A stretch of 64,000 nt of DNA, taken from positions 1 to 64,000 of the forward strand of contig JAUCBJ010008747.1 of the NCBI GenBank assembly GCA_032718475.1, written 5' to 3'. A program made the position numbers and the translations under genes. The notes under the pieces were generated by a model. It was not told the DNA's origin. It made no database searches and saw only the letters and a list, made by a program, of their open reading frames with translations. Numbering within the stretch: the first letter of the stretch is position 1; each line of letters begins with the position of its first letter. Shown piece by piece: positions 3-54,186 of the stretch. This DNA is from Nemertoderma westbladi (lineage: Eukaryota; Animalia; Xenacoelomorpha).

Positions 3-807
3 ATGATCGCACGCTCCAAGTATTAGCCCTACCCAAAAAACCATATGTTAAATTAATCCCCAACCATCTCTATACTAGATACTGTAGTTTTATGTTTGAA
101 GTAATGCATAATCCCTCGTGCTTGCCATGCCATGCCTAAAACTACGACCTTGTTTGAAATGTTAAGGTGGATTTTTCTATATAAATAAAAATCACGTAAA
201 GTTAAATCTTAATTGTTTTTACTGTCTTAGTAAAACTTCTTAATATTCCTAGTAAAATCTTATTCTTATTCTTATTCTACAACACGTTATTCTTAAATAT
301 AGAAACTAACAATGGAGATGACATATCAAATATGTCCTTACAACCCTTCCCACAGAGTGGCCAATGCTCAAATGCTTAGGCATCTAATAAAATGTAGAAA
401 GCCGGGGGTGGAGTTTGTCAAAGAGTGCCCCAACAATCCAGTGCACAGTTTTCCAAAAGAAGAAAAGGAGTTTCACATAAAGAATTGTCATTATAGGAAT
501 GGGTTACCACATGTTGGTAAGCTCATGAGTTTAGAAAACGATTTGGTTTAAAGAATCAATATGGAGAGAATGAGGGAAAAGTACAACAAGAACAAGATCA
601 ATGCGAATGGCCGACAGAATGGAGAGAAGAAGCTTGGGATTGAGACTGATGGACTAGGTTTGGTTTAGTTTAGTTTAGTTTGTTTTGTTTTGGTTTGGTA
701 TAGTACTATAAAAATATTATTATTAAAATCTTTATTAATTAATGCAATTTATTGTATTTTTGGGAGCAATAGAGCTAATGCGAGCTATAGGGACAATGGG
801 AAGGACA
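3..807 (+). repeat. Left arm of ~800 bp inverted duplication (partner 11594-12378)
   Basis: atgatcgcacgctccaag at 3 is the reverse complement of 12361-12378. Identity continues through the CHHC ORF to gggaaggaca (~807), matching 11594-11603. Confidence 0.95.
312..643 (+). pseudogene. GTSF1/Asterix-like double CHHC (U11-48K-type) zinc finger gene, frameshifted copy
   Basis: Two CHHC fingers: CPYNPSHRV..RHLIKC and CPNNPVH..FHIKNC. A 1-nt deletion near 510 relative to the other copy shifts off the tail ..QCEWPTEWREEAWD* (TGA 641-643). Confidence 0.75.
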
Positions 808-830: not shown

Positions 831-2060
831 ATTAAATTAATCCTCAACCATTTCTATACTAGATACTGTAGTTTTATGTACCATATGACCATTGTCAAAT
901 CGCCTGAGAAATGACAATAAACATCTGGTTTGCAATAGATTGACTTCTTTCACATTGTACTTTATGAAGCAGCCTGCGCATATGTTAAATTAATCCCCAA
1001 CCATCTCTATACTAGATTCTGTAGTTTTTTGTAATGCATAACCCCCCCCCCCCCCCCCCCCCTCCCCACGTATGCAATGCCTAAAATATTTCTTCAGATA
1101 CTATAGTTTAACATTAATTAACATACCCCATCTAACGCAGTAGCCCATTATATGCAATTTTCTCCGGCACACTCCCTGCTTCTCAAATCACACCCCATTT
1201 CCCATCATAACTAATGTTTTACATTTAATTAACCCAATGAAATGTATTTATTATTCCCCCAATCCAATAGCACGTCTCTCTCTCTTTTTTTATTTCTATT
1301 GGTTCCCCCAAGCTTCACTTTTATTTTCATTGGTTACCCTTTCCCTTATAAACCCCCAACCATCGCTTTGAACTTTACGTACAAAAATATTATCGACTTG
1401 CTTTTGATGATCTTACTTTTTATTTAAAGTTATAATACATTTATTGTTATTCATAATATATTGTTATACATAATACATTAATTGTTATACATAATATATT
1501 GTTATATAAAACATTTATAACATCAATGTGATTTGATTTTCCTTCTTATTATTCCCAATCAAGCAATTTTCTTTTCCAATACCACGAATCAATCTGCAGG
1601 TAAGAACAATAAATTTGTATTTTTTGTGCATTCGTTTAGTTTTAACATTATTGCCTCAAAATTAAATCAACCCTGCGAAACCATCCCAAACTTATTATTA
1701 TTATTATTTTTTAGTTTTTTTTATTTTATAGCAAACATGCCTAGATCATCAATATTCGTTGACTGTCCTGTCTGCAATAAGAACATGCGTAGTGATAGTC
1801 TCAACAAACATCTCGGAACTCATTTTAAACAATATTCATGCGATTGTTGTAACACCTGGATACCTTCTTTCACATTGTACAGTAATGTATGAAGCAGCCT
1901 GCGCATATGTTAAATTAATCCTCAACCATTTCTATACTAGATACTGTAGTTTTATGTACCATACCACCATTGTCAAATCGCCTGAGAAAATTACAATAAA
2001 CATCTGGTTTGCAATAGATTGACTTCTTTCACATTGTACTGTATGAAGCAGCCTGTGCGC
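831..2060 (+). repeat. Dispersed copies of a ~150-170 bp module
   Basis: The aaattaatcc(c/t)caaccat(c/t)tctatactagat..tgtagttt block occurs at ~50, 834, 988 and 1912, and inverted at ~12290-12338. The accattgtcaaatcgcctgag..gaagcagcctg block occurs at ~888 and 1966, and inverted at 12380-12473. Confidence 0.8.
1737..1892 (+). pseudogene. Truncated N-terminus (C2H2 finger) of a Polinton pPolB-like ORF
   Basis: MPRSSIFVDCPVCNKNMRSDSLNKHLGTHFKQYSCDCCN aligns with MPMSSRIIVCPVCEIEMRSNNLSHHLQTHFKQYKCDNCN at the start of ORF 28477-29820. It is preceded by a plausible 5'UTR intron (GTAAG at 1600, pyrimidine tract-TAG at 1731). Confidence 0.7.
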
Positions 2061-9174: not shown

Positions 9175-9490
9175 GAGCAGTGGGGGAGTGAGGCACTGAG
9201 ACACAGACTATGCCTCAGCTTCAGCCTTAACCTCAGCCTCACCCTCAACCACTTCACCAGCACACCACTTCACCAGCACACCACTTCTCCCCACAGGAGA
9301 ATATTTGTTTATCTGTTGTCAAAATCTGTTTTGCCTGTCTTGTTAACTAATTTGATGTTTTGGTTACTCATTCATTATGCATTTAAAATAGGATCAAGTT
9401 GACTTTATTTGTCTAATTAAACATATTATTATGAAATTACATAATTAAAAACGACTAAATATAATAAATATTTCAAACAATCAGTTATAA

Positions 9491-10243
9491 TTAATGTCTC
9501 GCATTAACTGTACGACTGTTCATACGCCGAGGTCGATATACAACAGTTACTGGAGATATAACTTTTCCATTCCTTACTCTGATTTTCTGTCCATTTTCAT
9601 TGTCATTCTCATCTGATTCTTCCTCACTGTCATCGCTACTCTCCTCTGCTTCTTCTACACTACCATCATTACTCTCATCCGATTCATCCTCATCACTCTC
9701 ATTTCCATCATTATCACTCTCTTTATGCGAATGTTTCTACATTTCATTCAATTGTCTAATTATTTTCTGAAATTTATTTTTATTTCCTAATACATGTCTT
9801 AATATCTCCTCATTATCTGAGTCATTCTCCTCCCCACTTTCATGTTCCTCGACTTCTTTCTCGCTCTCATTTTCTTCATCACCACTCTCATTTTCTTCTT
9901 TCTCTATCTCACTCTCTGTTTCATCATTCTCAACCTTTTCACTTTCCTCTGATTTATCATCTTCCTCACTCTCATTATCCTTTTCACTAGGTGGCTGTTT
10001 CTGTATATTTTTCAAAATATTCATGATTTTCTCGAATTTATGTTTCATCATTTGTTTAATCTCTAGAAAGTCACTCTCAACTCTCTTTTTGTTCTCTTCT
10101 TCACTAAAAATATCATCATTATTTTTTAATTTCTTTGGAGAAGGTTCCATTACACCTTCCTTTCTATGTATACTCATATGGCGGGATATATTGTCTCGTT
10201 TCATTTCTTTATCACAAACCATGCATTTTTCATAACTAGGCAT
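9491..10243 (-). pseudogene. C2H2 zinc finger + NLS + long acidic tracts protein (Polinton-associated type), one in-frame stop
   Basis: CMVCDKEMKRDNISRHMSIH, PSPKKLK and D/E-rich runs. The frame continues past TAG 9737-9739 with another acidic tract to TAA at 9491. Confidence 0.65.
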
Positions 10244-10893: not shown

Positions 10894-11429
10894 TTATCCT
10901 ATACTCTTTGTAGAAAAGAATCCACCTTCCATCTGAGAAAATATATAATTTGCATACCCTACAGTTAGTTTGACAGAACAATAATTCATACAACCATGCC
11001 TAGTGTCAATGTGAAAAGGACAGTTAGCATTAATGTGGAAATGACAATCTGCTTTAGGGTTAATGAATTTCTTATTTATTCCAAATATTTCCAGTAGTTG
11101 CGCAGTTATTCTAAGTTCATTCTCCAAAACCATTTGTTTATACATTCCAGAAACATATACTGTTTTTCCTGTCAACTGACGTCTAATATATTGTTTAAAT
11201 ACATCATGATTTAGGAAACCATATTCCCAAGACTTTTATCTCTGCTATTTGCTACTTTTCTTTCTTTAGTTGAATTTAACGTTAAATGGAGTGGTGCTTT
11301 AATGTAATAACAAGATTGTATACAGTTTGATTTCAAATCATAAACCACAAATTCTTTAAATATTACGGAATAAAATGAGTCATTGAGTACATGGTATTGA
11401 AAATCAACAATAAACCCGTTAATTATCAA
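10894..11429 (-). pseudogene. DnaQ/DEDD-fold exonuclease-like protein with Maelstrom-like Zn motif, frameshifted
   Basis: ORF 11211-11429 reads FIVDFQY..IFKEFVVYDL..YIKAP. After a frameshift near 11235 the other frame reads SWEYGFLNHDVFKQYIRRQLTGKTVYVSGMYK and runs into ORF 10894-11175, which ends CPFH..YCSVKLTVGYANYI. Confidence 0.55.
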
Positions 11430-11593
11430 GTGAATCAGAAAATATTTATAAAAATAATAAGCAGGATAAGAATTACTATCAAAAAGAATAAAAAGTTATA
11501 AACATCTTAATTAAATATAATAATGGGTGAGGAAAATTGTAATGAACTTAAAGACTTTTATTAACCAATAAGAAATAGTAGAAATTGTACATT

Positions 11594-12378
11594 GTCCTTC
11601 CCATTGTCCCTATAGCTCGCATTAGCTCTACTGCTCCCAAAAATACAATAAATTGCATTAATTAATGAAGATTTTAATAATAATATTTTTACAGTACTAT
11701 ACCAAACTAAACTAAACCAAACCTAGTCCATCAGTCTCAATCCCAAGCTTCTTCTCTCCATTCTGTCGGCCATTCGCATTGATTTTGTTCTTGTTGTACT
11801 TTTCCCTCATTCTCTCCATATTGATTCTTTAAACCAAATCGTTTTCTAAACTCATGAGCTTACCAACATAGTGGTAACCCATTCCTATAATGACAATTCT
11901 TTATGTGAAACTCCTTTCCTTCTTTTGGAAAACTGTGCACTGGATTGTTGGGGCACTCTTTGACAAACTCCACCCCCGGCTTTCTACATTTTATTAGATG
12001 CCTAAGCATTCGAGCATTGGCCACTCTGTGGGAAGGGTTGTAAGGACATATTTGATATGTCATCTCCATTGTTAGTTTCTATATTTAAGAATAACGTGTT
12101 GTAGAATAAGAGTAAGAATAAGATTTTACTAGGAATATTAAGAAGTTTTACTAAGGCAGTAAAAACAATTAAGATTTAACTTTACGTGATTTTTATTTAT
12201 ATAGAAAAATCCACCTTAACATTTCAAACAAGGTCGTAGTTTTAGGCATGGCATGGCAAGCACGAGGGATTATGCATTACTTCAAACATAAAACTACAGT
12301 ATCTAGTATAGAGATGGTTGGGGATTAATTTAACATATGGTTTTTTGGGTAGGGCTAATACTTGGAGCGTGCGATCAT
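11594..12378 (-). repeat. Right arm of ~800 bp inverted duplication
   Basis: Reverse complement of 3-807 with few differences. Confidence 0.95.
11737..12069 (-). pseudogene. GTSF1/Asterix-like double CHHC gene, copy with in-frame TAA
   Basis: The 69 aa ORF ends LPLCW*. The same frame continues AHEFRKRFGLKNQYGENEGKVQQEQNQCEWPTEWREEAWD* to 11737, giving ~110 aa in total. Confidence 0.75.
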
Positions 12379-15141
12379 GCGCGCAGGATGCTTCATAAAG
12401 TACAATACGAAAGAATGCAATTTATTGCAAACCAGATGTTTATTGTAATTTTCTCAGGCGATTTGACAATGGTCTACATGATAACGAAGCTGGAGGTTTA
12501 TAATTTAAAATTTGTGGCAACCCCGTTGGCATACAGTATAACTCAACATAGGATTCAATGGGATTAGTCATGCTACGTCTAATAAAGAGCCCAAACAGTC
12601 TCAGATTATTGGGGGACTGAGCCAAGGCCAAACTGGCCCACGTATTTTCCTGAAACGGTAATTTATGTTTTATGATTTATGCCCCGCTCGCATCTTTATA
12701 TTTCATTCTATCATTCTATTGTATGACAAAAATAATACAAATGTACTGTATATTGTATTGTATGGTACCTATTGTATTGTATATTTCATCTACTGTACCT
12801 ACTGTAGTACTACTATCTATTCATCACGCATCCCCTGTCTGATTGATTTGTGTCAAATTAAATTGCCTTTGGCAACATTATTTGATACAAATCGATCGAT
12901 TAAACAATTAATTAATTGTATAACCGACCAATTAATTAATTAATTAATGACCTACTTAACACCTAAGGTGTGAAGTTGGTCCAACTGTTGCAGAAAAGGG
13001 GTAACCATTACTACTATGGATTCAAAACCAGCATGCGGGAATATAGACCAACTTATGGTTATTTTAATTAATAATACACAACGAGAGTACACCGTATCTA
13101 TTGGAGATAATCTTTGAACGGAGCAATGCTCCAATACTATATGTTTCTAAAAACATAGGCCCTGAAGACCGTTTTAAGCTTCCAATGCTGGCATTGTATG
13201 AAAATGAAGTTAGTTGTTCTTATTATTAATGAAAAATATATTGTGGTTATGGTTACAGACAGACATGAATATCATATAGCCAACACAGAAAGTAATAACA
13301 ATATAAGAGCATCTAATTAGGATGATTAGTCAGTTCAGTTATTTCCGATTGGTCAAGTAATTTGTAGCAAGATTAATCGAGATAAGTAAGTACGTACTGC
13401 ACCATATTAGTAGTAGGCAATACACCTTAATTGAAACAGCGTCTGCCATAGTAGTAGTCGTAGTCGCGTGCCCAGAGGCACAGCACCAGACAGGCTGGCA
13501 TTTAATTTGCTATAATTCCATATCGAGTAAAATACGGACATATGAACCGTGAATGTTTGGAAGACAACGCAAAGTAAATAAACAACAGACTATTAAAAGC
13601 AGATATTTACAAATACAACCCGAAATATACAGACAATAGTTCGTACGATATAGTGATATTGAGGACAAGTATTAGTAAAAATAGCAATTAAAATCAATCC
13701 AATTACATCAGTCAAAGTATTGCTGGATCAGCTTCTTTTGATACACATATAATATGTTGATGATTAGAACAAGTGTTAAATAAAATTATCAGTTAAGCTT
13801 AAAGTCTACCATATGTTAACCCTATTACCACTGGGGGGGGGGGGGGGGCATACTCGGCCCCTTCCTAGTTTTTACTTGCTGTATCTATGCAACCACATTA
13901 TGTACCAGCCCATTTTTTTTATGAGAATTAGTCAAATTTAATGGCGCATCTTTTGCAAAAAACGGCGTTGCAGTTAGATTTCAACTTTTCGATGTGGGTG
14001 CCATCTAAAATTTGGTCCCCAGCAGAAATTTTTTTGAAATTTTCAAATTTTACAAGGTCATTTGTGAGTTAGTAATTATCTTTATGTTGGGGCTTTTTTT
14101 TATTGATTCTGATTCGTATGGAGCACTCTACTACTCTATATAAGTATAAGGGAAGTGGTACGTTATTTTTTGTGCACTAAAATTAGGGCGTGGCACTTCA
14201 AATTTTCAAAATTGCAATATTCGTTAAATACTCCGAAGTTTTGATTTCAACGCATTTTGATGGGTTTTCTGGCCCACTTAATCGATTGAAAGTAATATAG
14301 AAGACTCAATTCTTAGTGGTACATCATTTTTGGTGCACCAAAGTTAGGGTGTGACAAGTAGGCTTACTTCAAATTTTCAAAATTATGATATTCGGAAAAT
14401 ACCACAAGGTTTTCATTTCAACCCATTTTTATAGGTTATCTGGACCGCTGAATCGATTGAAAATAATATTGAAGCTTCAAGTCTTAGATGTGTGCCATAA
14501 GTTGCAAAGCTCAATAATAATGAGTCAACAATCATTGGTTTACCCGACTTTATTAATAATTAACACACCGTGTGATTCTAATACAAACAGAGATATATTG
14601 AAGGTCAACCAGGATTCGCCTTAGTTTAGCTTATCTGGTAGGAATGATACCAATTATATTGCAATATAGATAAAAATAAAAATATACAGTACTCGGCAAT
14701 CCAATAACCAGTATTGCCAGTAATCATTATTGACACGTCTGCATGTCTTATATATTGACAGAAGACTGAATCACTGCTACTGATTTAGGATTATAATTAA
14801 TTACCCACGTCAGTAGTACAGCTCTGTACCAGTAGTCAGGTTACTGTTTTACAGTTTAATACCGCAGCATCCTAACTACAGTTATTAATAGGTACGCAGA
14901 GCTAAAATATTATTAAGGCAGTATTGTCCGCAGTATACCAAGATAATAAAACTTGGTATATTAGCACCCATGCGCCCTTCCATAATACAGGGCTAAAAAC
15001 CTGTAGGTTCGCAATACTCTTTTTTACCAAATGTGTTTATATTCATGTATATATTCAAACGAAATATCAGAATGTAGGAACGCCTAATAGGCTATTTCGG
15101 GCTAATTATACTGTGGTGCTATTACTGCTCCAGGGAAAGTA

Positions 15142-15937
15142 ATTCTTATACCAAACAACACCTACGTAATTAAGCCTAGTGTTCAAAGTGTTAATTGCAA
15201 TTATATTGCTCATTAATCCTTTATCTCATACACAAATCGTGACTAATCTTTTATTTATGCTTAATTCATTTCACACTTCAGAACAATCATACATATTTAA
15301 TTTATTTTTATACTACAGTAAAGAGCATACTAATCTAGTTTTTTCTAGTTTTTTGCGAAGCTGTGCTCTTATAAATTACAAACTTGAGAAGCTGTGTCCT
15401 ATGAAAATTATAATAACATGAAATCACTCAAAAAACTGATTTTATAAACATTACATACATAGTAATTTCAAATTAGGTATGACACATAATAAAAGAAATG
15501 CCGCTTTTACTTTGATCTGTTTATTTACAATATATTTCAATAGGATTACATAATTGCAACACACAATAATGACAACACTGCTTTTTTCTTTGATATTTTT
15601 AATTGCAATGCTATCAACCTAAAGATAATCTCTAAAACTATGCAAAATTTTCTTTTCATAAAATGACAATTTTTTAAAAGATTATAAAAGGATTATTTTT
15701 CCAGTCATAACGGCGCCAATAGTCTATTTTTAAACCCTAGTGAAACCGTAATGAAACCTCTCCTAATTGGATAACCTACACTTTTGGCTACATTTTGATT
15801 GGTTTTTGCTTCCGATTGGACAAATCGTTATACAAATCCATATATAAAGCATCTTTAGCAAAAGTTTTTCATTCTTTCGAATAATCACTCATATTCAAGT
15901 AAACTTTATCATTTTTTGTTATAATTTGTTTTCATTA
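15142..15937 (+). repeat. Polinton left TIR
   Basis: attcttataccaaacaacacctacg.. is the reverse complement of the sequence ending at 30907. Similarity runs ~790 bp. Confidence 0.93.
15765..15850 (+). promoter_or_regulatory. CCAAT (ATTGG x3) + TATA promoter inside the TIR
   Basis: attgg at ~15766, 15798 and 15816, then tatataaa at 15841, ~140 bp upstream of ATG 15983. Mirrored in the right TIR upstream of pPolB. Confidence 0.6.
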
Positions 15938-15982
15938 ATTATTTTAAATAATTGACAAATAGCTTATTCATCTCACTCACTC

Positions 15983-17646
15983 ATGGATCTAACAACCAAC
16001 GAAAATGAGATCTCAGTATCCGACAATTCATTTGGGTTTTATTTCGACTCCTCCAACCAAAAGTTCCCATTCACTGTCAACACCTTTCGTAATCATCCTA
16101 CTCGCATCCCTTCTCATTATGCTCATTTTATAATGAGGGCCTGCTATCAGTTGGAAGACGGGGTTTATCAATCTTCAGATGAAACATTATACTGCCCAAC
16201 AAATGATTGCCTTAAAGTGCAAAAGTCACAAGATATTGTATCTTTCAATATTCCCACTATTGAAGAAACTTTTACAATTCCATCTTCTGTTTTTACCTTC
16301 ATTCGTGACAACCATAATCATGAAAGTTTTGAAAAAATGTTGGGACCATCATCGTTGAAAGCTACATTTTCTGCTGATAACTCACCCTTCGATTTTCATG
16401 CAACTGCAAAATCAATGTTTCTTCTAATTTGGAATCATAAACCAACAATTAATCCAGAGAACAATCAAGAATGTAGGATATTCAAATTATTCAATATGGA
16501 TATTATTACTTTGTGGGAGAAAATGAATGAGCTAATTTGTATATATGACAAAAAAACCGAGTTACATTTTGGTTTTAATTTTAAAGTTGCTCAGTCATCA
16601 AACACTCAACCATCTACCTATACTGAAATTGTCAACCTTACGGATACCATCAATGGAGGGTGGCTACCTATCTCAGCTACAGCTATCGCTCTTCTTCGAC
16701 ACTATCTCGAAGTCTGTCGTCCATTCATCAACACACAAATACACTTTATTCTTCATCCTGGCAATTATGTTTCCTTCGATAGTTCAACATTTGGCTATAT
16801 TACAAATCTTCAACAAGAAAGGAATATTGCCATTGCCTCAGGAGTAGAAGTCGATGCTGGTAAAGCCATAATCTCACTACATGATTCGATATTACTAACC
16901 CCAGAAGAAGTAAACAAATTAACATTTGATACAGATGAAGCAGATGAATTTGATGAATTAAGTGAGAAACGATTAATCTCTGAAAGAATTAAACTTCACT
17001 TTATGATGCTTCGAATACTGTTGAAATCAGTGATAGGCTCTTGCATACTGCCTTCACTTTTGACAATGATGATCGAGCAACGGAAGCTTTGATACAACTA
17101 CAAAATATGCTTCATGATGTTGCTACTTCAAAGGAAATAACTCTTCCCAATCATCAATGCATGGAATTGAGCAAATCACTCACGAGTTTCATTTACACCT
17201 TCAAGGGGACAAACTACGTTGGAATCTGGCCATACAAACAAAAAGATAATAAATTTAAAACAATATTGTTTACAAGTGGGATGAATATCAAGTCAGATTT
17301 TTTCAAAAAGTTTCATGTAATGCGACAATCACCAAATCATCCTCAATGTTGCATCGCACCACATATTCATGTTCGTTATGCAAATGGTGAAACAATATTA
17401 ACCAATTTGAAGTCCCACAACCAAATTTTGCTTTCAGCAAATTTTGGAGTTGAGCATTGCATCAATTTCCTCAAACAAAAATTAGACAACGCGGTTTATC
17501 TTCCCAACCAACATCATTTGAATCTGTTTCATCCTACTTCCCTCTCAACACCACCAAAAATGTCCAACATTTCTAAAGAAATGTATAAAATAAAATTACC
17601 TACCATATGTCATAAAGACGAAAAGAAAATGAAACTAGATGATTAA
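15983..17646 (+). pseudogene. Polinton accessory protein with PC4-like ssDNA-binding repeat(s), frameshifted near 17040
   Basis: Overlapping ORFs of 369 aa and 201 aa. FIYTFKGTNYVGIWPY..SGMNIKSDFF resembles the PC4 pattern FKGxxYxxIRxY..GIxL. Confidence 0.5.
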
Positions 17647-18063
17647 CTCTTTCATATTATTCATAATTATTTAACTCTTGTGTGTAAGGAATAATTATCT
17701 GCTTTGTGTGACTTATATATCTTCAATGTTTATTTTGTTATATGTCTCTTGTATATAAGGAATATTATATATCTACTTTGTGTGACTTATTATATCTTCA
17801 ATGTGTATTTTGTTATATAACTAACACATTTCATAATTATTTAGTATAATATATTGATGATGTCGGCTATAAAAATTCAAAGTTTCCCTCATAATTTAAA
17901 AAAAAAATAAAGGAAATTTTTTCCACTCAACTTTTTATAATATATTTTTATATACTATATGACTAAATGATATTGACACACAACTATATATAAATACATC
18001 TACATGATTAAATATAATTAACACACACACACATATACACATTACATAATATATAAAATAACA

Positions 18064-18492
18064 TCATCTCTTTTTAGTCTTTCTTCTCAACCAGCATGCT
18101 AGTACTTTTTCATTATGCAACAACTCACTACTAAATATTTTCAATGGATTGACATTTTTTGGACGCTCACATAAATAATATAAGCAATATCTACCACAAC
18201 TTGTACGAAAAGGATGCTGAATTATCTGACGTGTTCTTTCCCATACAATTGTATTACGAACCAACCAATCTTCAATTCTTGGAGTTGGATATTGAGCAAA
18301 TGAATCAAAATATTCACCTTTACCATCACATACATATATAGCTACCCAATGAGTTCCAGGCAAATGACTTGGTTGAATATTACTAATGAAGCTCATCTCT
18401 CTAGAATCTATCTGAGGAAGCTTATCCACTGGAAAAGATCCTCTATAATGATTACCAACAGGATAATCATTTAAATCATATGAGTTTAACAT
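18064..18492 (-). CDS. Adenain-like cysteine maturation protease
   Basis: PGTHWVA (His), EYFDSF (Asp), Q..SCGRYCL (Gln/Cys). Confidence 0.92.
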   Translation of the reverse strand: MLNSYDLNDYPVGNHYRGSFPVDKLPQIDSREMSFISNIQPSHLPGTHWVAIYVCDGKGEYFDSFAQYPTPRIEDWLVRNTIVWERTRQIIQHPFRTSCGRYCLYYLCERPKNVNPLKIFSSELLHNEKVLACWLRRKTKKR

Positions 18493-18502
18493 TTCTTTTA
18501 TT

Positions 18503-19745
18503 TTAAAAGATAGTTACATTACCGTCTTTACTTATATTGAGACTCTTATCATATCCCATCCAGAGAATAATGTTTATTGTTGCTGGTAGTGCATTAGCAA
18601 ATTGCAACTCTAATCTTGCATTGCCAACATGTCTAGGTAAGAAATCATCACTATCTAAGTAACCATCTGGAGCAAGGTTCAAAATAAAGAAAGGGTACAT
18701 ATCACGGAAGCTAGTAGGAGTAATTGCGTTACTAGTGCCTCGTATGATAGAAGTAAGGTTATTCTGAGTATTCATTTATATATTGATTGGCACCAAAATT
18801 TGGTTTATAAGTGACACCACCAAGAACTTTTCCATCCAATGTTATTTGTAAAAAATTTACATCAAAATGCTGAAATGCCATTGAATTACGTCCATATATA
18901 CCTTTATATGCATCATTACGAATCATTCCCAAAATAATAAATCTCGGAGTATTGTTGCCAGCAAATATGTTTTCACGTACATGTGATCTCTGACCATTAC
19001 CAACTGTAAAAGTTGTAACTTCATTTTGTATGAATGGATATATAAAATCTTCCCTCTGTAGAAGATCAACATGTTCTTTCATGAGACTATCTTCTATTTT
19101 TATTCGTTTTGTTTTTAAGACAGCTTTTGTAATATTTACTCTACCTCCTTCAATGTCATCTCCACAAGTTAAACTAAAGTTATCAGGTGCTCTTGTTAAA
19201 GTAATTCTAACACTTGTTCTTGGTGGCAGTACTTTTATTTGATCAAAGATATCAATAAATAATAATCCTTGTACTTGATATTGTGAGCTTTTCAACGCTT
19301 CAGCATTTTCAAAAACAATAGGAACTCCATTTGTGGTTTGCTCTGCATATCCAGCTGCCGTAAGTATTGTTTCTTTAGTATTTCTATCATTAACTAAAAC
19401 AGCCTTTAAAAATGCTTTGTAAGCATAGTTTGAGGTATTGGGTTCAACCTGGCATTCATTAATCAATACATTAATATTAGAGAATAATGTTGATAAGGTT
19501 AATGGTGTTATTGAAACCACACCATTATTTGGTCGAGCTGTAGTTGATACTTCATAGACTATTTGTAGAGTTGTATCACCTCCTACAGTATAATATTCAT
19601 CTGATTTTTCAATTACAAAATCGATTACACTAGTTCCAATTCCAAGTGTTGTTATTGGATATACTTCATGTTCAAAACTTTCATTAATAATACTCTGTGT
19701 AGTAAAGTTGCTAAATAAATTTAATTAATCTATTGTTTCACTCAT
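18503..19745 (-). pseudogene. Major capsid protein (double jelly-roll), with nonsense and frameshift
   Basis: ATG at 19745 (MSETID*LNLFS..TQ..EVYP), NYAYKAF, PRFIILGM, FQHFDVN, RLELQFANALP..I. Stop at ~19726 and frameshift at ~18770. Confidence 0.85.
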
Positions 19746-19765
19746 TGTTATAGATTTTAACAAAA

Positions 19766-20345
19766 TTAACTAAAAATATCATCACAATCGTGTCTTTGAC
19801 CTTTGGTAACCTTTCTCCTTTGATATTTATTAACATTTATCCTTTTCCTTTTTTGTGGTTCGTTTATTGATGATGCATTTGCATTAAGAACCTCACGAAT
19901 TATTTTATTTGCTACACGTCTAGTTATTGGTTTGGTTCTTTTTAGCAATTTGTTGCATAGTTTGTTTAACTATTTTTCTTCTTGATTTTTTGAGTAATGG
20001 TACTCCTTTACGAAGAGCCGCTCGTGCAACAGGTTTAGCAATTTTTGGAATGACTTTTGCTGCCATTTTTACAATATTTCCAAATAATCCACGACCACGC
20101 TGCCCATACCTAGCATAGATAGTTCATGTATTCAAACGTCGACTTCTTAAACCACCTCGAAAATAAGGGAGACTTCCACTACTATTTCCCCATCCTCTTC
20201 CATCTTGCTTATAGCGCATTAGAAGGCGATATGGTGTAGTTTGACCAATTCTTCTTTTTCCTAAAGGATCAGTAGGATCAGGATATGAACCACCCTTAAC
20301 TAAGTAATTATCAACGCTTGACATTCTTTTTATTAAAAATATCAA
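19766..20345 (-). pseudogene. Basic virion core / membrane-lytic-type protein with GRG protease sites
   Basis: QDGRGW and QRGRGLFGNIVKMAAKVIPKIAKPV (amphipathic helix), with a basic tail ending DDIFS. In-frame TGA at 20124 and a frameshift at ~19940. Confidence 0.7.
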
Positions 20346-20390
20346 TTAGTAATATAAAATGAAGAAACAATGATTTGTTTTAGTCAACGT

Positions 20391-21182
20391 TTATTGATGC
20401 TTTAATAATAAAGTAACAACTACAGTCCCAGAATTAAGGTCTATCAAATTTCCATCATCATCTTTTAGCTGAATGTTTATTATTTCAATGTTTTGCATAT
20501 CAACAGGCTTATAATTTATGTTGTTGAATTCACGATGAACCAAAGACCCATAGTCACCTTCATATGGAATTGTTCTCAATAATGGCTTCAATTGATGTCA
20601 TACTATAACATTTGCACTTATATTGGAATAAATATTAATATTACCACTAAAGAAATCACAAGCTTTTTGAATGAAAAAAGTATCTTCATCGAGCATCATA
20701 GAACGGTTTATTTGCAAATATCCATTTTGTTTAATAACTTGGAAACGTTTTTTACTAAAGTAATTTTCTTCTTCCAACCCCAACAAACCTAGCATTCGAA
20801 TCAATTTATTACTATGAAAACGTATACGTTTGATTTTTTTCAAAAAGTGAAGCGAAATAGTATTATATAATGTATTAAATTGAATTTTTACTCTCATATC
20901 TAAAACACTCGCATTCAATTGTTCAATCAAGGTTTCTATATTGTCATAACAACCGGCAGATAATATATATCTCTTTATTTTTCCACGAACTCCTTGTGTA
21001 GTAATTAGAGTATCATTAATATTATACATTGAAGCCAAGTAAGTAATTTCTGATAATCCCACCATCCACATCCCACTCAAACGTAATGGTTGTGATAATT
21101 CTACATTAAAATTTGATGGTTTATTCTGTGGAAATCTTTCAGGTGATGAATTAGAAGGTAAATATAAAACAGTTTGCTGCAT
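20391..21182 (-). pseudogene. Minor capsid (penton-like) protein paralog 2, in-frame TGA at 20598
   Basis: LYLPSNSS..FPQN..F.VEL..L.G.W.VGLSEI.Y, IYSNI..VIV*..PLLRTIP and IQLKDDDG..VTL. Confidence 0.8.
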
Positions 21183-21184
21183 TA

Positions 21185-22009
21185 TTATTTCTTTTTTTGA
21201 CGTAAGTGTAAGGTGATTAGAGTGAATCCTGCATTAAATAGCAAAAGTTCTCCTTTTTCGTTTCGTATCTCAACTGCTATTTGATTAATAATATTGTTTG
21301 CTATAGGTCTATAATAAACTTTCCTAAAATCACTTGGGATAATATTATTTTGCTGAAGTATGATAGGTAATGTACGTAATAATGGCGCTGTTGTATTACC
21401 AACAATTGTATAAGATGTTATATCACTATAAAAGAATAAATTTTGTCTTCCTCTTACCAAATCACATGAAAAAGGACTAATTTTAGAAAAATCTTTACGT
21501 TGATTAGGTTTCTGCTTAAGTGATAAGTTATCTGTCTTTCCTATAGCAATGTTCCAATATTGATGCCACTCAACCTCTATATTATCATTCACAAATCCAT
21601 CAAAACCTAATATAGTTTTCAAATCTCCAGTTATCTCAAATGAAAAATTCTTTGAACAAGTTAGTTTAATTTTATTTGAAAATTTTATATATTTTATATT
21701 TATTGTTGTTTGAGAGTAACCAAAAGCTTCAAATGTTTCATTAATTTTTTGAACGATTGCTTCCATGCTTAAGTATAATCCTGGAGTAAAAAGAACAACA
21801 TTTCGAGAACCATTTTGATAGTAGAATATAAACTGTGATATTTGCTCAATGTTATAATATGAAGAAGAATATCGAATTTCAGATAAACCAACTTCTACAT
21901 CTGATGACAAATATAATGTATATGGAAGCTCAACTATAAATGAACTTAATGAATTATTAGGGAACCTCGAAGTTGGACCATTAGAAAATAATGTAATATA
22001 ACTATTCAT
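21185..22009 (-). CDS. Minor capsid (penton-like) protein paralog 1
   Basis: YITLFSN..FPNNSLSSF..VGLSEI.Y, FYSDI..IVGNTTAPLLRT and IRNEKGE..TLHLR. Confidence 0.85.
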   Translation of the reverse strand: MNSYITLFSNGPTSRFPNNSLSSFIVELPYTLYLSSDVEVGLSEIRYSSSYYNIEQISQFIFYYQNGSRNVVLFTPGLYLSMEAIVQKINETFEAFGYSQTTINIKYIKFSNKIKLTCSKNFSFEITGDLKTILGFDGFVNDNIEVEWHQYWNIAIGKTDNLSLKQKPNQRKDFSKISPFSCDLVRGRQNLFFYSDITSYTIVGNTTAPLLRTLPIILQQNNIIPSDFRKVYYRPIANNIINQIAVEIRNEKGELLLFNAGFTLITLHLRQKKK

Positions 22010-22049
22010 TTTTGGAAATTATATAAATTAAGTTAAATTTAATCATAAC

Positions 22050-23110
22050 TTATTTACGTAGTTGGTTTCCATCAATCCACATATTTCGCTTATTACCCTT
22101 AAATCGTACTAAATATTGCTTGCTTTTGTTTTTTATACGTTCTTTGACTATTTTTTCAATTGGAAAAATATCTGTAGCTTGCTTCACTAGTTGAAGTTCT
22201 TCTTCATAGAAGGTGCCCTCAATATCTCTACCAACAGAATCAGTTATATGATACATTGGATATGGAAGATGATCTCTTCTAATACGTTTTATCTTAAAAA
22301 TTTCATTTGTCCAGTTCCCAATATATGATTTTTCAAATACATGTTTAGCAATATTAAGTCGTACACTATTACCTATTTTCAACTTTGGTTTAGAGAGCTT
22401 CTTAACTGTACCAAAAAGTTTTAGTCTCACTATAGCTTGATTTTGCTTATTTACTTGTAAAGGCTTCATTCCTATTGATCTATGAAATGTATTATTATAT
22501 GTATTAATAATTTTAGGAAGGATATCTACCCATTTAGTATTTCTTCTACGAGTAAATATTTTGAACATCCGTGACTTTAAAGTACGATTAAAACGTTCAC
22601 AAATTGCGGCTTTGAATTGGGATCGAGTTGTATAATAATTCACCTTATTTTTCTTTAGATAAGTCAGTACTATGCGATTATTGAATTCAAGTCCTTGATC
22701 ACTATTGATCACCTTGATCAAAAAATTATTTCTAAATCTACCTTAATTTCTTTCCCTGTTTTTCGTTTTAGTGGTAATGCCCAAACTTGTTTTGAAAAAC
22801 AATCAATTACTGTTATAATATAATTGAAACCAGAATTAACATTGCTATATTTCTGCATATCAACCAAATCTGTTTGTATAGTATCTCTTATACCCGAAAT
22901 AAACATTCTAGAAGTGGGATAATAATGCCTTCTAGCTGATCTATGAAGAGTGTAGGTCGGTTGACTCGCTAGCCAATTTTTTACAATACTTTGCTTCAAC
23001 CCGCTCGCTTTGCTTAGTGCTTTTACGCCACCAAACCCTGCAGTGTTTGAAATATTGTAGTAAACAGCAGCTAGCCGACGATCTCGTTGGTTCACCATCA
23101 CTTTGGTCAT
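22050..23110 (-). pseudogene. Retroviral-like DDE integrase with C-terminal chromodomain, frameshifted near 22720
   Basis: YTLHR, QTDLVDM, IDCFSK, SDQGLEF, ERFNRTLK, YNNTFHRSIGMKP, FYEEEL and QYLVRFKG..W. Confidence 0.93.
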
Positions 23111-23204
23111 AACTACGTTTTTGACTTATACAATTACACACACAATCACAATTGATTTTCAATCTCTTAAACCAAGACATTATTATTAATATTATTACTA
23201 CTAT

Positions 23205-23432
23205 TTATATATAGTTCAAAAAAGCAATGTCGTTTATTGTTTTGATATGTTTTTTATTAGTTATTTGCTTTGAATTCTTGAGTGTCTTCTTCTTCTTCTT
23301 TTTCTTCATCTTCTTCTTCTTCTTGATATTTTTTAAGAGTTTTGTTTGTAATGGAATAGGTTTAGTATATTTTTGTTGTTCTAATAAATTATATTGTTCT
23401 GGTGTTATGAGATACATTTTATGAAATGACAT
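23205..23432 (-). CDS. Small Lys-rich Polinton protein (possibly truncated)
   Basis: KMYLITPEQY N-terminus and poly-Lys; abuts neighbouring genes. Confidence 0.5.
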   Translation of the reverse strand: MSFHKMYLITPEQYNLLEQQKYTKPIPLQTKLLKNIKKKKKMKKKKKKKTLKNSKQITNKKHIKTINDIAFLNYI

Positions 23433-23434
23433 GG

Positions 23435-23800
23435 TTATGATGCAGCAGATGCGATAGTTGTAGCTCTAACAGCTCTAACGGCTCTAACAGCCTCTACAGC
23501 TCCAACTATTAAAGGAATAAGGAATGGAAGGAATCCCCCTTTCTGTGATAATTTCTTACGATAATCCTTAATATTTGAATGCTTCTTAAAATTTCGCATT
23601 TGACTTTTATATGGAGCTAGTTTATTAGCATCGGAAGCTTTTAATCTGAGATTTCCATATAAAACATTTAATGTGATATTGATGAGAAAACGAATTAATT
23701 CATTACTAGCTTGTGTTCTAATAAATAATCCTCGAGCACGAGGTGTGCTATTTTTCAAAAACTCCAACTCAGAACGATGCTTATGAATAATAGACTTCAT
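23435..23800 (-). CDS. Polinton structural/core protein with QKGGFLP motif
   Basis: NVLYGNL and LSQKGGFLPFLIPLI, an adenain-type GG cleavage site followed by a hydrophobic helix. Confidence 0.75.
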   Translation of the reverse strand: MKSIIHKHRSELEFLKNSTPRARGLFIRTQASNELIRFLINITLNVLYGNLRLKASDANKLAPYKSQMRNFKKHSNIKDYRKKLSQKGGFLPFLIPLIVGAVEAVRAVRAVRATTIASAAS

Positions 23801-23985
23801 GTTATTAACTTATTTGAAAAAAAAAAGAATATAAAACTTCAAAACAAACATTTATTAACTAATACGCTTATAAGTGACAAATTTGCATAAAATATATACA
23901 CAAACTAATTAATGATAGAAAGTAGCATATTATTGATATTAAAAAGTAATATACATATGATATATATTGATCAATATTATTATCA

Positions 23986-24621
23986 TTATTGTAAATAAAC
24001 ACAATGTTTATGTGTAAACAGATGCCCCCGAACAAGATAATTATCATTTGTTAACTGATCAAAATCAATGATTAACGGATGAAATGGTTCTGCAGTTGCA
24101 TCACGAAAGGCATCAATTAAGAATTTAGGGTTTGTTGGATTCATCTGATATGAAAGTACACGAATTTGTGTTTGGTCTCTAGGAATTTTAAAAATAATAA
24201 AGTATGTACTATTAATTGAACGAGTTCTTGCTTCTGCTCCTCTTTGATATAAGTTTTGTATTAATAAAATAACTACAGAATGTGTATGTCGAGCAATTTT
24301 GGTGAATAATTGTGTAGTTTGCTTTGAACTTTCTAGCTCACTCATAAGATCATCAAAAACTAATATTGTATTTCTCTGAATATTTTCATTTAAATTTTCA
24401 GGAATTGTATTTAATATAGTTATATTTATCCCTCTAATGTTAGGTTTTGTTTGACCATAGAACCATATGATATTATTAGAAGGAGTATCAAATATAGTTT
24501 TCCTATTTTGAAGCAGTTTTTCAACAAATGTTGTTTTACCACTTCCAGATGGTCCTGCTATTAATATTGTGCTTCCAAATCTAAATCGTACATCAATAGG
24601 GTTATGAGATTTGCTAGCCAT
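23986..24621 (-). CDS. FtsK/A32-like genome packaging ATPase
   Basis: Walker A GPSGSGKT, Walker B LVFDDLM, RH..S and QNL, RT..NSTY...FK.PRD. Confidence 0.93.
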   Translation of the reverse strand: MASKSHNPIDVRFRFGSTILIAGPSGSGKTTFVEKLLQNRKTIFDTPSNNIIWFYGQTKPNIRGINITILNTIPENLNENIQRNTILVFDDLMSELESSKQTTQLFTKIARHTHSVVILLIQNLYQRGAEARTRSINSTYFIIFKIPRDQTQIRVLSYQMNPTNPKFLIDAFRDATAEPFHPLIIDFDQLTNDNYLVRGHLFTHKHCVYLQ

Positions 24622-25111
24622 TATTTTATAAAATGTTTATCATTATTATTATTAAAAGTTTGATATTATCTTGCGCTTATTAAAATTTTCAAATATAAAA
24701 TCTATATGAATTTTTTAAAAATAGAATTAGGCTATATATAGGATAACAATTAGTAACTAAGCCAATATCAAATTAATATAATTACAACAAATTACTATAA
24801 TGAATGCTACTCCTTATACATAAGATTACATGAAAATATGACTTTAATTGAGATAATAATTCTCATTCAAAACTAATCAAGCATATGATAAAATTGGCTA
24901 TATATAATATAGTATATTTAAAGCTATTTCTACTTAAGAGTCAGCAAAAACCTAATTTACTATAAAGAAATGGAGACATTAATTAAGTCTATAAGATAAT
25001 CATATTTACATATTATTATTTCCTAAAGTTCATTTAATAAATAAAGTTTATATAGAATACAATAAGATTTAGCGTTTGAATAACAAAATATAAATTATGC
25101 TAATTGCATAT

Positions 25112-25662
25112 TATATATTTACAAAATAATTTATATACATTATCAAACATAGTTGGATGAGTCATAGATACTATCTTACCAGTATGAAAAATACTAAAAT
25201 ATCACGTATTTATGAAGCATCGTATACCACAAAATAGTTCAGGGTTATAATCTAAGTGAAAGCTATCATTATTTATTTTAAAATTTCCACATTTTTCAAG
25301 ACATTTTCTAAAGTTGATTTCAAGAAAGATGATGCGGGTTTCAGTATTTAGTTTTAAATTTGCTATTTTCAAACTGGTAAGGTTTGCTATATAATCAATT
25401 TGTAAAAGTATATTACTACATAGGCCAACGATTGTTATAGCACCACTCTCAAAAAACATAAAAGTTGCCTCATGATTGCGAAAAATTAACATTTTCGGTT
25501 TTGTTACCAAATGACCATCTATTTGTTTAGATAACTGTATTAAATCTAGTTTTGAAGAGCAGTATGAAGAATATTGTCGATTAACAATTTGATTTAGTTT
25601 AGAAGAAATGATTTGTTTGTCTTTCTTTAATGTTGCATTATCATTAGTTTTTAGTGTTATTC
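25112..25662 (-). pseudogene. Divergent TATA-binding-protein (TBP)-like gene, in-frame TGA at 25202
   Basis: Repeat 1: IVNRQYSSYCSSKLDLIQL..KMLIFRNHEATFMFFESGAITIVG. Repeat 2: LNTETR..DYNPELFCGIRCFINT*YFSIFHTGKIV. Compare TBP KLDL..LIFSSGK..G and YEPELFPGL..LIFVSGKVV. Confidence 0.7.
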
Positions 25663-25707
25663 TAAAAATAGAAGAATAGAATGATTATGAGTTTTCTATT
25701 ATTAGTT

Positions 25708-28700
25708 TTATGTGTTGATATTATTACTATCATTGTCATAGTTGCTGGCATGTCCATGTTGCTGCCCTAAAACCACTTGTGGAGCAATGGTTTTAGGTAT
25801 AATGGGATGAGTTAACTTTGTGATATAATGTCCATAGGGATAGCTGATATTTTTATCCTTCCACCAAAAACGTTTAGTCTCCCATAAAGTTAATGATTTC
25901 TTATGATTTCGGGCTGTCCGGTTTGTCCGATCTAAAGGCATTGGTATACCGAAACAGCTCAGTTTCATTGAAATAGCAATCCAAATAATCTTGATAAGAA
26001 ATTTGCTTTGCTACAACACTTTTTGATACACCTTTACAAGTTTTTTTCTTAGGAGCATCATATGCTTCAAATGAGTATACTTTTGGTTTTAAAAATACCC
26101 ATGATTTGTAGAGACAGCCTTTTGATTCATCCTTCACAAAACCTAATGATGCTTTATATTTATTTGTATATAGATGATGTGAGGTATCATAGTTTGAAGT
26201 ATCTAAAAACCCACCATTATACATTGCAGTTAAAAATTTATCGTGTGAAGTATTAGTGATGCTAAGCATGAGGTTATCAGTATCTCCACCACAAGCTCGA
26301 ATTTGGCATCCTAATTGATGTTCTATAGGCTTAATTTTATAGTAGAAATAATCGTACATTTCCAATTTTGAGAGATCAAGGATAGCTGTTCCAATAAATA
26401 CAGCTTGATTTAAAGTTACAGCTTCCTTGCAAAATGTATGTCCAGATAAATTTGGTAAAAATACAACAAAAGACTCATGATTGGGTTTAGCGACCAATTT
26501 TTCACATTCCTCACTTGATGTTGCTAGCCTAAAATTTATTCTATTATGCACTTTTTGCAGACATTTCCCATATAGAGCATTATTTAAAAGCTTATAGAAC
26601 AGAACTTCGAATGGATTTTTGGCAGATTGTCGCTTATTTGTATTAAAAGCTATATAGTCTCTAAATATATATTTTTGTGAAAATGAATAAATATTATGAA
26701 TTTTTGTAATTTTGAGTCCCATTTTTAGATAAAATTGTAATAGTTTAATATGAACTCCATATTCTTATTTAGGAAATTGATGAAGTAAAAGTTTGGTGGA
26801 TACATCATTGTATTTTTTGAAGGAAGCATCGTCTCTAATATTATAATGCTCCCACTGGTTTTTCATATGTGGGCTGAGAAGAGAAGAAGGTACGCTCATC
26901 TTCTCAGGACCCAATGGCATATCAATAGTGAGATCTTGAACTTTTTTTGGATAATCGAGGCTTACTACACAAAAATACCCAGTATCACCATCAGCATCGA
27001 TTGTGGCCAAGTCAATTGGTATTGTGACTTCTTTGATGTTGGCATATGGAAGCTTTTGAGATAGAGCATGACCATAAAGATTGTTTGCATCCACTGGTAT
27101 CAAATATTTTTCTGGTTTGGAAGAGTCATATTCAGGTTTTCCAGGGATATTGGCCAACACCAAATGCGAGTTTAAAAAAACCATTCCTCCATGGATAGAA
27201 CGTTCAAATTGAGAATAAATGGAAGAATCACTCAATAACTCAATTGAAATATCTGTGAATTTTAGAGCAGCATCATGTGTTAATCCTGGTGCTGTATAAT
27301 AATGGAGTGGTTCTAGACTATAGTAAGTTAGGTAGAGTTGATGAAACTCTTCGAAAACATCAGCTAGGAGAGTAATATCAAGACAGAGATAGCCCATTAG
27401 ATAGTCATAGATAGTCTGACATTGAAGTTCATCCCAAGCAGTAAGTGCACGTTGATAATCTTGAATAGAACAGTCTTCGAGTTTAAGATCATTATAAAAG
27501 TCTCCAATAGGAGGTAGTTTGGTTTCATGAAGGTTGGAAATATTTTGGATATAGCTATAGGGAAAGACACCTTTATTCTTAATAGTAGAGTCTGTAATGT
27601 TTGGATATAGTGCTTTCATTTGAGTTAGCGTATGTGGAATAGCTGTGGATAGATGGAATTGTTGGAGGTAAGATAGCTACTAAGGTTGTCTAAACTAGCA
27701 GTCATAAATTGAAATGAGTCCAAAAAATTAAGGCAGATGGAATCTTTTAATGTGGCAGATTTTGCATTTTCATCTATGGGAAATGTTGCTTGTAAATTTA
27801 TATAATTTTCAGTCGTTTGCGGTATTATATTAAAATGCCAATGTTTGCGTGCACTTGTGGTCATGCCTTCCTTTAACAGTATATGTAGGTCATATTTTCG
27901 GAGATTATGAAAAATGATGGCAAATTTATTAATTTTTATTGATAATTTACAATTACAACTGACGCAAGCAGCACCACGATACTTTCCAGTATAATGGTCA
28001 TGGTCGCAAACCTTTGTAGTTAAATTTTTAGAAATGTCTAGTCCATAAGAGTCAGGAGTAAGGATACAATTACAAGAGTAGCAGTTTGTTGCAAAATTAA
28101 AGTTTTGTTGTTCAGTCTGTGTTAAGTGCATGTGTATATTAGTATTTGTGCCAGAGATTGACCATTTATAGAGTTTCCTACAGTGAGATTCTAAAGCAGT
28201 TAATAAATCATTTATTACATGATTGGAGCCATCATCTTTGAAAGTTTGAATTGGAGTAGGTGGTGGGTTTATTAAATTGCGGTTAGGTATAGTATAAAAT
28301 GCAGCCGCGCTTGCGATGTGTTTCTGAGGAAATTTGGGGTCTGATGTAGGTTCTAGAATAGTTTCTATATCAGAGTAGATGCAGAGCAGAAAGGAGGAGA
28401 AAGTGTTTTATCGAGTCTGTTAAATTTAAGTGTTAGTTTGAGTTTAAGTGTTAGGAGTAGGCATTCGCTCCACTTGTCATTTAGCGGAATAGCAAAGGTC
28501 ACGGTGTGTTTCTAATGCATTCGATGAATAAAATGGTCGTGTGCAACGCTCACAGAAAAACAAACGGTTATGTGAGCCTGTTCTTGTGTTGAATAGGCGG
28601 CCCAAGTCTGATACCGCTGAATAATGTCTAAGAAGACTGTTTGTATTGTCAACGAAAAGTAGAGTTAATACAGTTTTATTTAAGCAATGATATTTGTCAG

Positions 28701-29820
28701 GTTGGCGTAATATTGTAACCGATTTTGTGTTTTCGTGCCAGAGGAGTAAGTTTATACAATACTTGTTATTATCCTTTTCAAATTTATCAATGCCTGTTTT
28801 TATATCTACAGGAAAGGTAAGAGATGAAAAATCGAATTCATTAAGGTAAGGTGTAAATGTTGAAACTCTGCTAATATTTTGTTTTTTCCTATCAATTTTA
28901 TGCTGGAAGGCTGTAGCTAAAACTGCATACTGAAAACATTGTGGACAGTCGACATTAATAGTACTCATTTTGCCAGCCAAATTTTTTGGTATCTTTCCGC
29001 CATTACCTTTAAAATATGCATTGCGATTACAGACAGAAATTTGAATATTAATCCTATCTATTTGTACTAACCGCCAACCAGAACCCATATGTACAAAACT
29101 AGCAACTAGCTCATCTATCCTACCAACAGCATTTTGGTACCAACGTTCAAAATCATTTTCGGATGTAATTTTGTTATTTTCCCCACTAGATTTGAAACAA
29201 AATGTTTCCATTTGCACCCCATCCCCTTGCTCCCGTTCCAAAATTAAAAATATTGAAAGCCAAATTTTTATAAAAACACCTAAATTATTCGAAAAATGTT
29301 GATTCACCCTCCCCCAAACATAAGGCCTATTTTCGTCGAGTGTTTCTTCTATATCTAGATGAGCGGTTGTTAGTTTATTACTATACTCAAATAAATTGTC
29401 GTGGGCAGATGTAGTGTTGGGAAAAACTTCTTCAAAATTATTTGGAGAAGAAGAAGAAGTAGATGGTCCAGCCCCAACTTGTCCCACTGGTGATGACACT
29501 GGTGATGTAGATGGAAACACATCTTGATGTTTTCTTTTACGTGAGATCAATTGAGTGTAGCAAGAGTGTTCTTTAAAAGAAGAGAGAGTGAATGTTTCAC
29601 CGCATTTGCAACTTGAAGGTTCGTTGACAAAGGTGAAACCAGTTCCCCCTTCTTTGCAAAGAGATTGGTGTGCGATTGCACTTTTCTTTTCGGATGTGAA
29701 GACATTGCAATTGTCACATTTATATTGTTTGAAGTGTGTTTGAAGATGATGGCTAAGATTATTGGATCTCATCTCAATTTCGCAGACAGGGCAAACGATT
29801 ATTCGGGAAGACATAGGCAT
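25708..29820 (-). pseudogene. Protein-primed family B DNA polymerase with N-terminal Zn finger and endonuclease-VII-like insert; split into five ORFs
   Basis: GSGW, CFQYAV, DHDHYTGKYRGAACVSCN, FHNL..YD, FLDSFQFM..SLD, KGVFPY, DANNLYG, KLLNNALYGK, DTD, PKVYS and KGV motifs. Confidence 0.95.
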
Positions 29821-29884
29821 TGTGAATGAAAAAGTGAACTTGAATTTTTAAATGAAATATAACTTTGCAGTGTAGTAAAGACTT

Positions 29885-30085
29885 GGTTGATAAAAATACT
29901 TGAATTGTTGTAAAGTTTTTTTTTTTTTTTTTGTAGAATAACTTTGCTGATATAACTTGATGAGAGATAAATAGTTGAATTGTTGAAAAGTTTTTTTGTA
30001 GAATAACTTTGTTGATACAACTTGATGAGAGATAAATACTTGAATTATTGTAAAGTTTTTGTAGAATAACTTGTTGAATTGTTGT
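29885..30085. repeat. Degenerate ~60-70 bp tandem repeat upstream of pPolB
   Basis: Recurring gtagaataactt..ttgatgagagataaata.ttgaatt.ttg.aaagttttt. Confidence 0.65.
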
Positions 30086-30120
30086 ATTAGTATGATAATA
30101 ATAAATTATATTAAATAATA

Positions 30121-54185: not shown

Positions 54186-54186
54186 C

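Follow-up and report, generated by a model that had tools for sequence, protein, structure and literature searches.

A GTSF1-like gene and an adintovirus-type MAEL-like gene, both broken, among Polinton-type debris of Nemertoderma westbladi: candidate PIWI-cofactor decoys

We analysed a stretch of 64,000 nucleotides from one contig of Nemertoderma westbladi, referred to here as the window, in which two broken genes sit among Polinton-type debris (Table 1). Here we refer to the GTSF1/Asterix-like one as gene 1 and to the MAEL-like one as gene 2. That the copies are disrupted had already been noticed in a first-pass annotation and holds true, as gene 1 has an in-frame stop, while gene 2 has no ATG and a frameshift.

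Table 1 Coordinates of the features identified in the window
Feature	Position	Strand	Remarks
Inverted second copy of 11593-12378	3..807	+	96% over 806 aligned bases
5′ fragment, similar to the beginning of the Polinton pPolB ORF	1737..1859	+	58.5% over 41 aa; 1.1 kb past second gene 1 copy
Acidic ORF opening with C2H2-like finger, of the type of the Polinton pPolB ORF N-terminus	9737..10243	-	Score 64; in high-depth repeat
Gene 2, adintovirus/Polinton MAEL-family, in two frames	about 10894..11423	-	By profiles, hhalign and alignment
11-base overlap joining the gene 1 side to the gene 2 side	11593..11603	.	Most contigs of three public runs diverge each side
Gene 1, GTSF1/Asterix-like, two CHHC fingers and acidic Trp tail	11737..12069	-	110 codons; intronless; in-frame stop at codon 70
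Short high-depth repeat upstream of gene 1	12266..12474	.	Pieces also at 42-115, 832-1045 and 1864-2070
TIR-bounded Polinton	15142..30907	.	TIRs 15142-15953 and 30104-30907, 94%; pPolB, ATPase, integrase, protease, pX and capsid-like ORFs

The fingers of gene 1 open from an ATG at 12069, and the acidic tail EWPTEWREEAWD follows in the same frame, 3′ of the stop, which falls between the finger pair and the tail. The first-pass annotation had described tandem CHHC fingers with this tail and had called the gene GTSF1-like. Both are borne out, since PF05253 (zf-U11-48K) of Pfam matched gene 1 in two stretches (E 4e-14) and the best matches in a sequence search of the PDB were mouse GTSF1 (6x46, E 1.3e-5) and the GTSF1 chain 9nhb_E (E 2.5e-4), with U11-48K being a weaker match at only E 0.07. 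Judged by its sequence, the resemblance of gene 1 to GTSF1 exceeds chance. With its two PF05253 stretches and 110 codons, it also fits the definition of GTSF1/Asterix as a protein of <20 kDa with two N-terminal CHHC zinc fingers (PMC9539491).

The RNA-binding basic residues in finger 1 of mouse GTSF1 are R26, R29, K36 and K39 (PMC9385479), three of which (R29, K36 and K39) are kept by the 12069 copy in an alignment with mouse GTSF1 in which the numbering of the 6x46 chain is assumed to be that of mouse GTSF1; the position of R26 is occupied by Ala. The stretch HLIKCRK in finger 1 is identical to mouse. After the fingers, and 3′ of the stop, the acidic stretch carries the aromatic residues W100, W104 and W109, with a spacing of 9 residues between W100 and W109, as between W98 and W107 of mouse (cf. 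PMC9385479). Small, with two N-terminal CHHC fingers and an acidic tail with Trp residues, gene 1 thus has GTSF1 architecture, similar to mouse GTSF1 (6x46) and the GTSF1 chain of 9nhb. On the other hand, it differs from these in having just 110 codons, in a longer linker from finger 2 to the Trp motif, in being intronless and in occurring as two broken copies amid Polinton debris. Its putative product looks like a competent activator which keeps the features of activating GTSF proteins, and a working cofactor would fit it as well as a decoy. No relatives of gene 1 were retrieved by a word-index homolog search or by scanning viral contigs with it.

A second copy of gene 1, missed by the first-pass annotation, was identified at 312-643 inside the inverted duplicate. 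The two copies are identical at 346 of 349 aligned bases, with one gap. The second is frameshifted before the tail and keeps 2 of the 4 basic residues of mouse finger 1, and no gene 2 was found downstream of it. The duplicated blocks (3-807 and 11593-12378) were also considered as the terminal inverted repeats (TIRs) of one element. This reading was set aside for two reasons: the repeat includes gene 1 itself, and its copy stops at the rearrangement junction described below. At the end of the duplicated block, an inverted copy of the first ~25 bases of gene 1 was found at 807-831; it also appears as loose ends in public runs and suggests template switching.

Gene 2 is split between two frames, with its front half at about 11423-11235, its back half at 11232-10894 and the frameshift near 11235-11211. 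The motifs FIVDFQ..KEFVVYDL..IKAP and CPFH-x10-C..YANYI, which had been read before as the two ends of one Maelstrom-like protein, are both present but in different frames (ORFs 11211-11495 and 10894-11235, respectively), and the front frame is devoid of Met over its first 60 codons. Searched directly, the two halves gave no Pfam or PDB sequence match of note, no usable Atlas match and no match in the protein database. The front half had no relative in the scan of viral contigs, and the word-index homolog search returned nothing for the back half. A HMMER search of the back half against representatives returned 4 matches, all of them repeat proteins, which were discarded, and the one match of a phage tblastn was judged to be due to chance.

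As the direct searches with the gene 2 halves failed, loci were fetched by an integrase pattern instead (17 viral and at least 117 metagenomic), and another Polinton core ORF was also matched in 76 of 134 fetched loci. An ORF resembling gene 2 was present at its full 170 aa in three loci, split in a fourth and cut by the contig end in a fifth. A first family profile was built from four of these five ORFs, and the two halves of gene 2 ranked first and second against it among the 764 segments of the window (E 0.0019 and 0.0036). The family comprises 621 proteins among 1180 candidates, mostly 160-200 aa long and, among the 120 listed, mostly unnamed ant proteins without a Pfam domain. Against a deeper profile of 102 sequences, in which the protein of locus L013 was aligned with 101 of the 120 listed relatives, the two halves took first and third place (E 0.019 and 0.26), and both frames jointly reached 18.5 bits vs a best of 8.3 bits in shuffles (880 scored of 1000). 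With hhalign, the halves were colinear on the family with E values of 4e-4 and 2e-4, at probabilities of only 35 and 45%. The identity of gene 2 to the family is 15-33% per half.

The family profiles showed no significant PDB sequence or Pfam match, and the structure model of the gene 2 back half was poor (pLDDT 52). The model of a family member (L013:2199-2717) reached a pLDDT of 90. Its top PDB match in Foldseek was Bombyx MAEL (5af0, E 1.1e-4), with REXO2 and arenavirus exonucleases within a factor of four of that E value. In a wide structural search, Drosophila MAEL (4ybg, Z 12.9, 160 aligned, rmsd 3.1) was tied with DinG (Z 12.9), the MAEL of the SIWI-GTSF1-Maelstrom complex (12.7) and DnaQ (12.3). 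Two independent structure searches therefore both placed MAEL chains first or close to first. The first-pass annotation had proposed a MAEL/DnaQ profile hit as a check on the second protein; no such match was obtained for gene 2 in Pfam or PDB sequences, and the DnaQ/MAEL fold was found in the model of the family relative. In BFVD, this model closely matched a Drosophila adintovirus protein. It also matched four ichnovirus ORFs (Apophua simplicipes and Ichnoviriform fumiferanae, E 2e-10 to 2e-7), and polydnaviruses appear, by predicted fold, to carry the same MAEL-type family.

The MAEL domain is defined by its ECHC zinc-binding residues (PMC4408791), and gene 2 has this set by alignment, with E24 in the front half and C63, H66 and C85 in the back half, the CPFH pair being an alternative; its Cys-rich end was aligned to the family by MAFFT only. 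The full residue set of Maelstrom is EHHCHC (PMC2628886), for which the family has H34 and H61/H62 as the two first His; gene 2 has Cys in place of the first and lacks, at its break, the part in which the second would stand. In the alignment, gene 2 keeps D-x-Q, KE, W..G, Y..G..K and C-H-C (D8, Q10, K21, E22, W66, G69, G100, K103, C144, H147 and C151 of the family), differs at G11, H34, W43, W106 and others, and carries an extra CxxH. The second acid of the DEDD catalytic set is a Gln in gene 2 and in 45 of 45 family rows, which speaks against an active DEDD enzyme.

Compared with metazoan Maelstrom (Bombyx 5af0 and 9nhc_F, Drosophila 4ybg), gene 2 would share the DnaQ-derived fold, as modelled for its relative, and has in common the kept first Asp and the lost second acid, the Glu on strand 2 and the C-terminal C-H-C. 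It differs in the Cys for the first His of EHHCHC, in being about 65 residues shorter and in showing no sequence-level match. It also differs in the HMG box found at the Maelstrom N-terminus, for which there was no match in either gene 2 half or in five family members, and gene 2 is not classed as a Maelstrom ortholog. The fold would place the family among the DEDD proteins, and the E-C-H-C residues together with the lost second acid would indicate the MAEL type (PMC4408791). The family is thus characterized by a DnaQ/MAEL fold, modelled on a relative, by E-C-H-C residues at a predicted zinc site and by the lack of both a second catalytic acid and an HMG box.

A stand-alone gene of this kind has been labelled before. 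The adintovirus maps in Suppl. Fig. S2 of Starrett et al. 2021 carry the label MAEL in four places, one of which (in the first map) comes directly after penton and hexon (PMC8502044), and Pannagram sets apart 'mael-associated' polintons (10.1101/2025.02.07.637071). The MAEL-family gene also follows penton and hexon in two of our loci (L005 and L013) and, from gene order and predicted fold, the family fetched here appears to be the labelled adintovirus MAEL. Gene 2 has in common with it the ~170-aa DnaQ/MAEL-fold gene type with D-x-Q, KE and C-H-C, and differs in being distant and broken, with a second CxxH and a longer Cys-rich end, in lying outside a TIR-bounded element and in having a GTSF1-like neighbour. 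Judging from the alignments, gene 2 is a distant, broken member of this known adintovirus-type MAEL-like gene type, and the earlier Maelstrom-like call stands in this form, on the family profiles, the fold of the relative and E-C-H-C. A Polinton origin of gene 2 is supported, because the family to which it belongs is a Polinton accessory family. The terms GTSF and CHHC are absent from the searchable text of the Starrett et al. 2021 and Pannagram papers, and a literature search with coverage short of most subscription papers turned up neither a Polinton-borne GTSF gene nor a GTSF/MAEL pair. The adintovirus MAEL gene type is therefore known, while the GTSF1-like neighbour found here seems to be unreported.

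In the window, gene 1 ends about 314 bp before the conserved front of gene 2, in keeping with the spacing of about 300 bp first noted. Three public runs, which come from two studies and share one organism label, contain contigs covering both genes at about 97% identity. Most of these contigs, in all three runs, leave the window at 11593 or 11603; divergence falls at 11603 for the gene 2 contigs of every run and at 11593 for the gene-1 contig of run X1. Among the contigs listed, one of 49 bases (run X3) crosses the 11-base overlap at a depth of 33.5, vs 113.6 and 44.5 for two other listed contigs ending at 11603. It is below the bridge length of the tool, and its ends are as expected of a junction-specific piece. 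Because most contigs diverge at the overlap and the usual upstream sequence of gene 2, as given by the public-run contigs, is absent from the window, the ~300-bp spacing is a derived minority form at a rearrangement junction, true of the window and absent from most contigs. By a rough measure, contig depth over both genes is close to the value in the flank, the adjoining repeats being covered far more deeply. The public-run contigs differ from the window at the gene 1 stop, at the missing start of gene 2 and at the gene 2 frameshift, which suggests that less decayed low-copy versions of both genes exist.

The pair had been taken to lie in the remnant of a Polinton, and no enclosing element was found: the genes are 3 kb outside the TIRs of the sole TIR-bounded Polinton in the window, and no TIR pair encloses them in 9250-15200. 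We therefore rejected the pair as part of the adjacent Polinton, an element which has no significant match to gene 1 or gene 2. The support that the first-pass annotation drew from neighbouring ORFs holds in part. The gene 2 family is a Polinton accessory and Polinton-type debris is nearby, but the pPolB ORFs (25901-29847) belong to that separate element. As for the debris, none of 2000 shuffles reached the score of the finger at 9737-10243 or of the fragment at 1737-1859, and Polinton-type fragments and the same high-depth repeat lie near both copies of gene 1. By eye, this repeat (12266-12474, 832-1045 and 1864-2070), which translates to Cys/His-rich pieces, could be a decayed RING-finger gene.

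Within the TIR-bounded Polinton, pPolB is in four pieces, and the integrase and major-capsid-like ORFs are split. Two paralogous minor-capsid-like ORFs (20598-21233 and 21185-22018) are 27% alike, with all capsid names taken from relatives, and plus-strand ORFs at 15956-17646 have no family assignment. Right after pPolB lies an ORF at 25202-25684 (-) whose match to the TBP domain PF00352 is weak (E 0.0017) and falls short of the curated cut-off. Scanning viral contigs with the ATPase returned one locus only, from an unrelated phage. Elsewhere in the window, a LINE at 4506-9214 (-), whose endonuclease/RT frame is open over 1037 aa and preceded by an ORF1-like frame, sits between two long TGAG microsatellite arrays, and that microsatellite may be its target. 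A second RT-like ORF was detected at 36907-38499. Exons at 43060-51064 (+) resemble a SLC34 sodium-phosphate cotransporter, presumably a host gene, and 24- to 28-base satellite arrays, strongly GC-skewed, occupy the window end (51200-64000).

Conserved linkage of the two genes, an expectation of the first reading, was not seen, as no second element with both was found in the collections searched. No tandem-CHHC ORF was detected in 160 fetched loci (9811 ORFs, with 7 single chance-like motifs), which include the 5 distinct contigs with a MAEL-family gene, or among 22 pattern matches in viral contigs; these collections contain few complete animal Polintons, so the absence weighs little. The MAEL family, with its 621 relatives and these 5 contigs, is widespread without a GTSF partner. 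Overall, the earlier observation was partly confirmed and its interpretation partly supported, and the PIWI decoy function is something that we infer throughout.

The PIWI* complex is said to consist of PIWI, a piRNA-target duplex, GTSF1 and Maelstrom. Genes 1 and 2 resemble exactly its two cofactors, although the complex is a host one and a mobile-element version of the pair was not found in our searches. As GTSF1 and Maelstrom are cofactors of the same PIWI complex, a random pairing of the two would be unlikely. We tentatively favour the reading that both broken genes were accessory genes of another, decayed Polinton and acted as PIWI-cofactor decoys, which we regard as quite possible, if short of probable. 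The two genes would have been carried by one Polinton, farther apart than in the window, and a deletion at the 11-base overlap would have brought them to 300 bp. Host GTSF1 and Maelstrom would assemble on target-engaged PIWI, which has been reported to bind both together, at adjacent target positions (PMC13269885, PMC13618286). The viral GTSF-like protein could dock on PIWI via its Trp tail and first finger while the HMG-less MAEL-like domain could occupy the Maelstrom site, and the resulting complex would pass no signal to slicing or heterochromatin formation; HMG-less Drosophila Mael was reported to be nonfunctional (PMC4408791). The more far-reaching claim, that a Polinton lineage has a two-gene mimic of the PIWI* cofactors GTSF1 and Maelstrom which jams target-engaged PIWI, with the first GTSF1 homolog in a virus-like element, seems to us rather unlikely.

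Alternatively, gene 1 might be a host GTSF paralog or retrocopy which local rearrangement set beside an ordinary adintovirus MAEL gene, and there would be no two-gene viral module. The junction absent from most contigs, the second gene 1 copy with no gene 2 following it, the strong rearrangement of a region with a LINE and repeats, the low contig depth over both genes and the lack of a viral tandem-CHHC gene in the collections searched all fit such an origin, and GTSF paralogs are common in animals (PMC9385479, PMC12014135). So does the GC content, at 40% in gene 1 vs 30% in gene 2 and the Polinton, although coding for Cys, His and Trp alone can raise it. We still consider this origin somewhat unlikely, given that gene 1 is intronless, that both its copies have Polinton-type fragments and the same repeat nearby and that the chance landing of a GTSF copy beside a MAEL-like gene would be improbable, a judgement rather than a computed figure.

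It is also conceivable that one Polinton carried both genes and that they were not suppressors, the products binding or processing its own RNA or being working cofactors which steer or boost PIWI (e.g. against rival elements), and perhaps by now retained by the host. MAEL domains bind ssRNA (PMC4408791), the family is widespread without a GTSF partner, gene 1 has kept finger-1 basic residues together with the Trp spacing that activation requires, and the differences of the three-run contigs at each of the three lesions point to less decayed low-copy versions. A mobile element silenced by piRNAs would, however, profit most by blocking the pathway, and the gene 2 family has no HMG box, which makes a non-suppressor role distinctly unlikely in our view. 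Finally, that gene 2 is a generic DEDD-fold remnant or a chance resemblance with no special tie to Maelstrom would agree with the empty Pfam, PDB-sequence, Atlas and protein-database searches of its halves and with the tied fold scores among DEDD proteins. Yet the halves align colinearly with a single family at scores that exceed the shuffles, the E-C-H-C residues are kept, MAEL chains lead or nearly lead both structure searches and the adintovirus gene is labelled MAEL in the literature (PMC8502044), so that we find this very improbable. The decoy reading thus remains the one that we tentatively prefer.

Animal transposons and endogenous viruses are, to our knowledge, not firmly known to encode suppressors that act directly on the piRNA pathway. 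Should rearrangement have paired the two genes by accident, the finding would come down to a GTSF pseudogene and a further broken MAEL gene. For the MAEL genes of adintoviruses, the literature consulted gives a label with no functional explanation. If the decoy reading is true, the GTSF1-like partner would point to the target-engaged PIWI complex as the target of these genes, and would make the idea testable by existing slicing and reporter assays.
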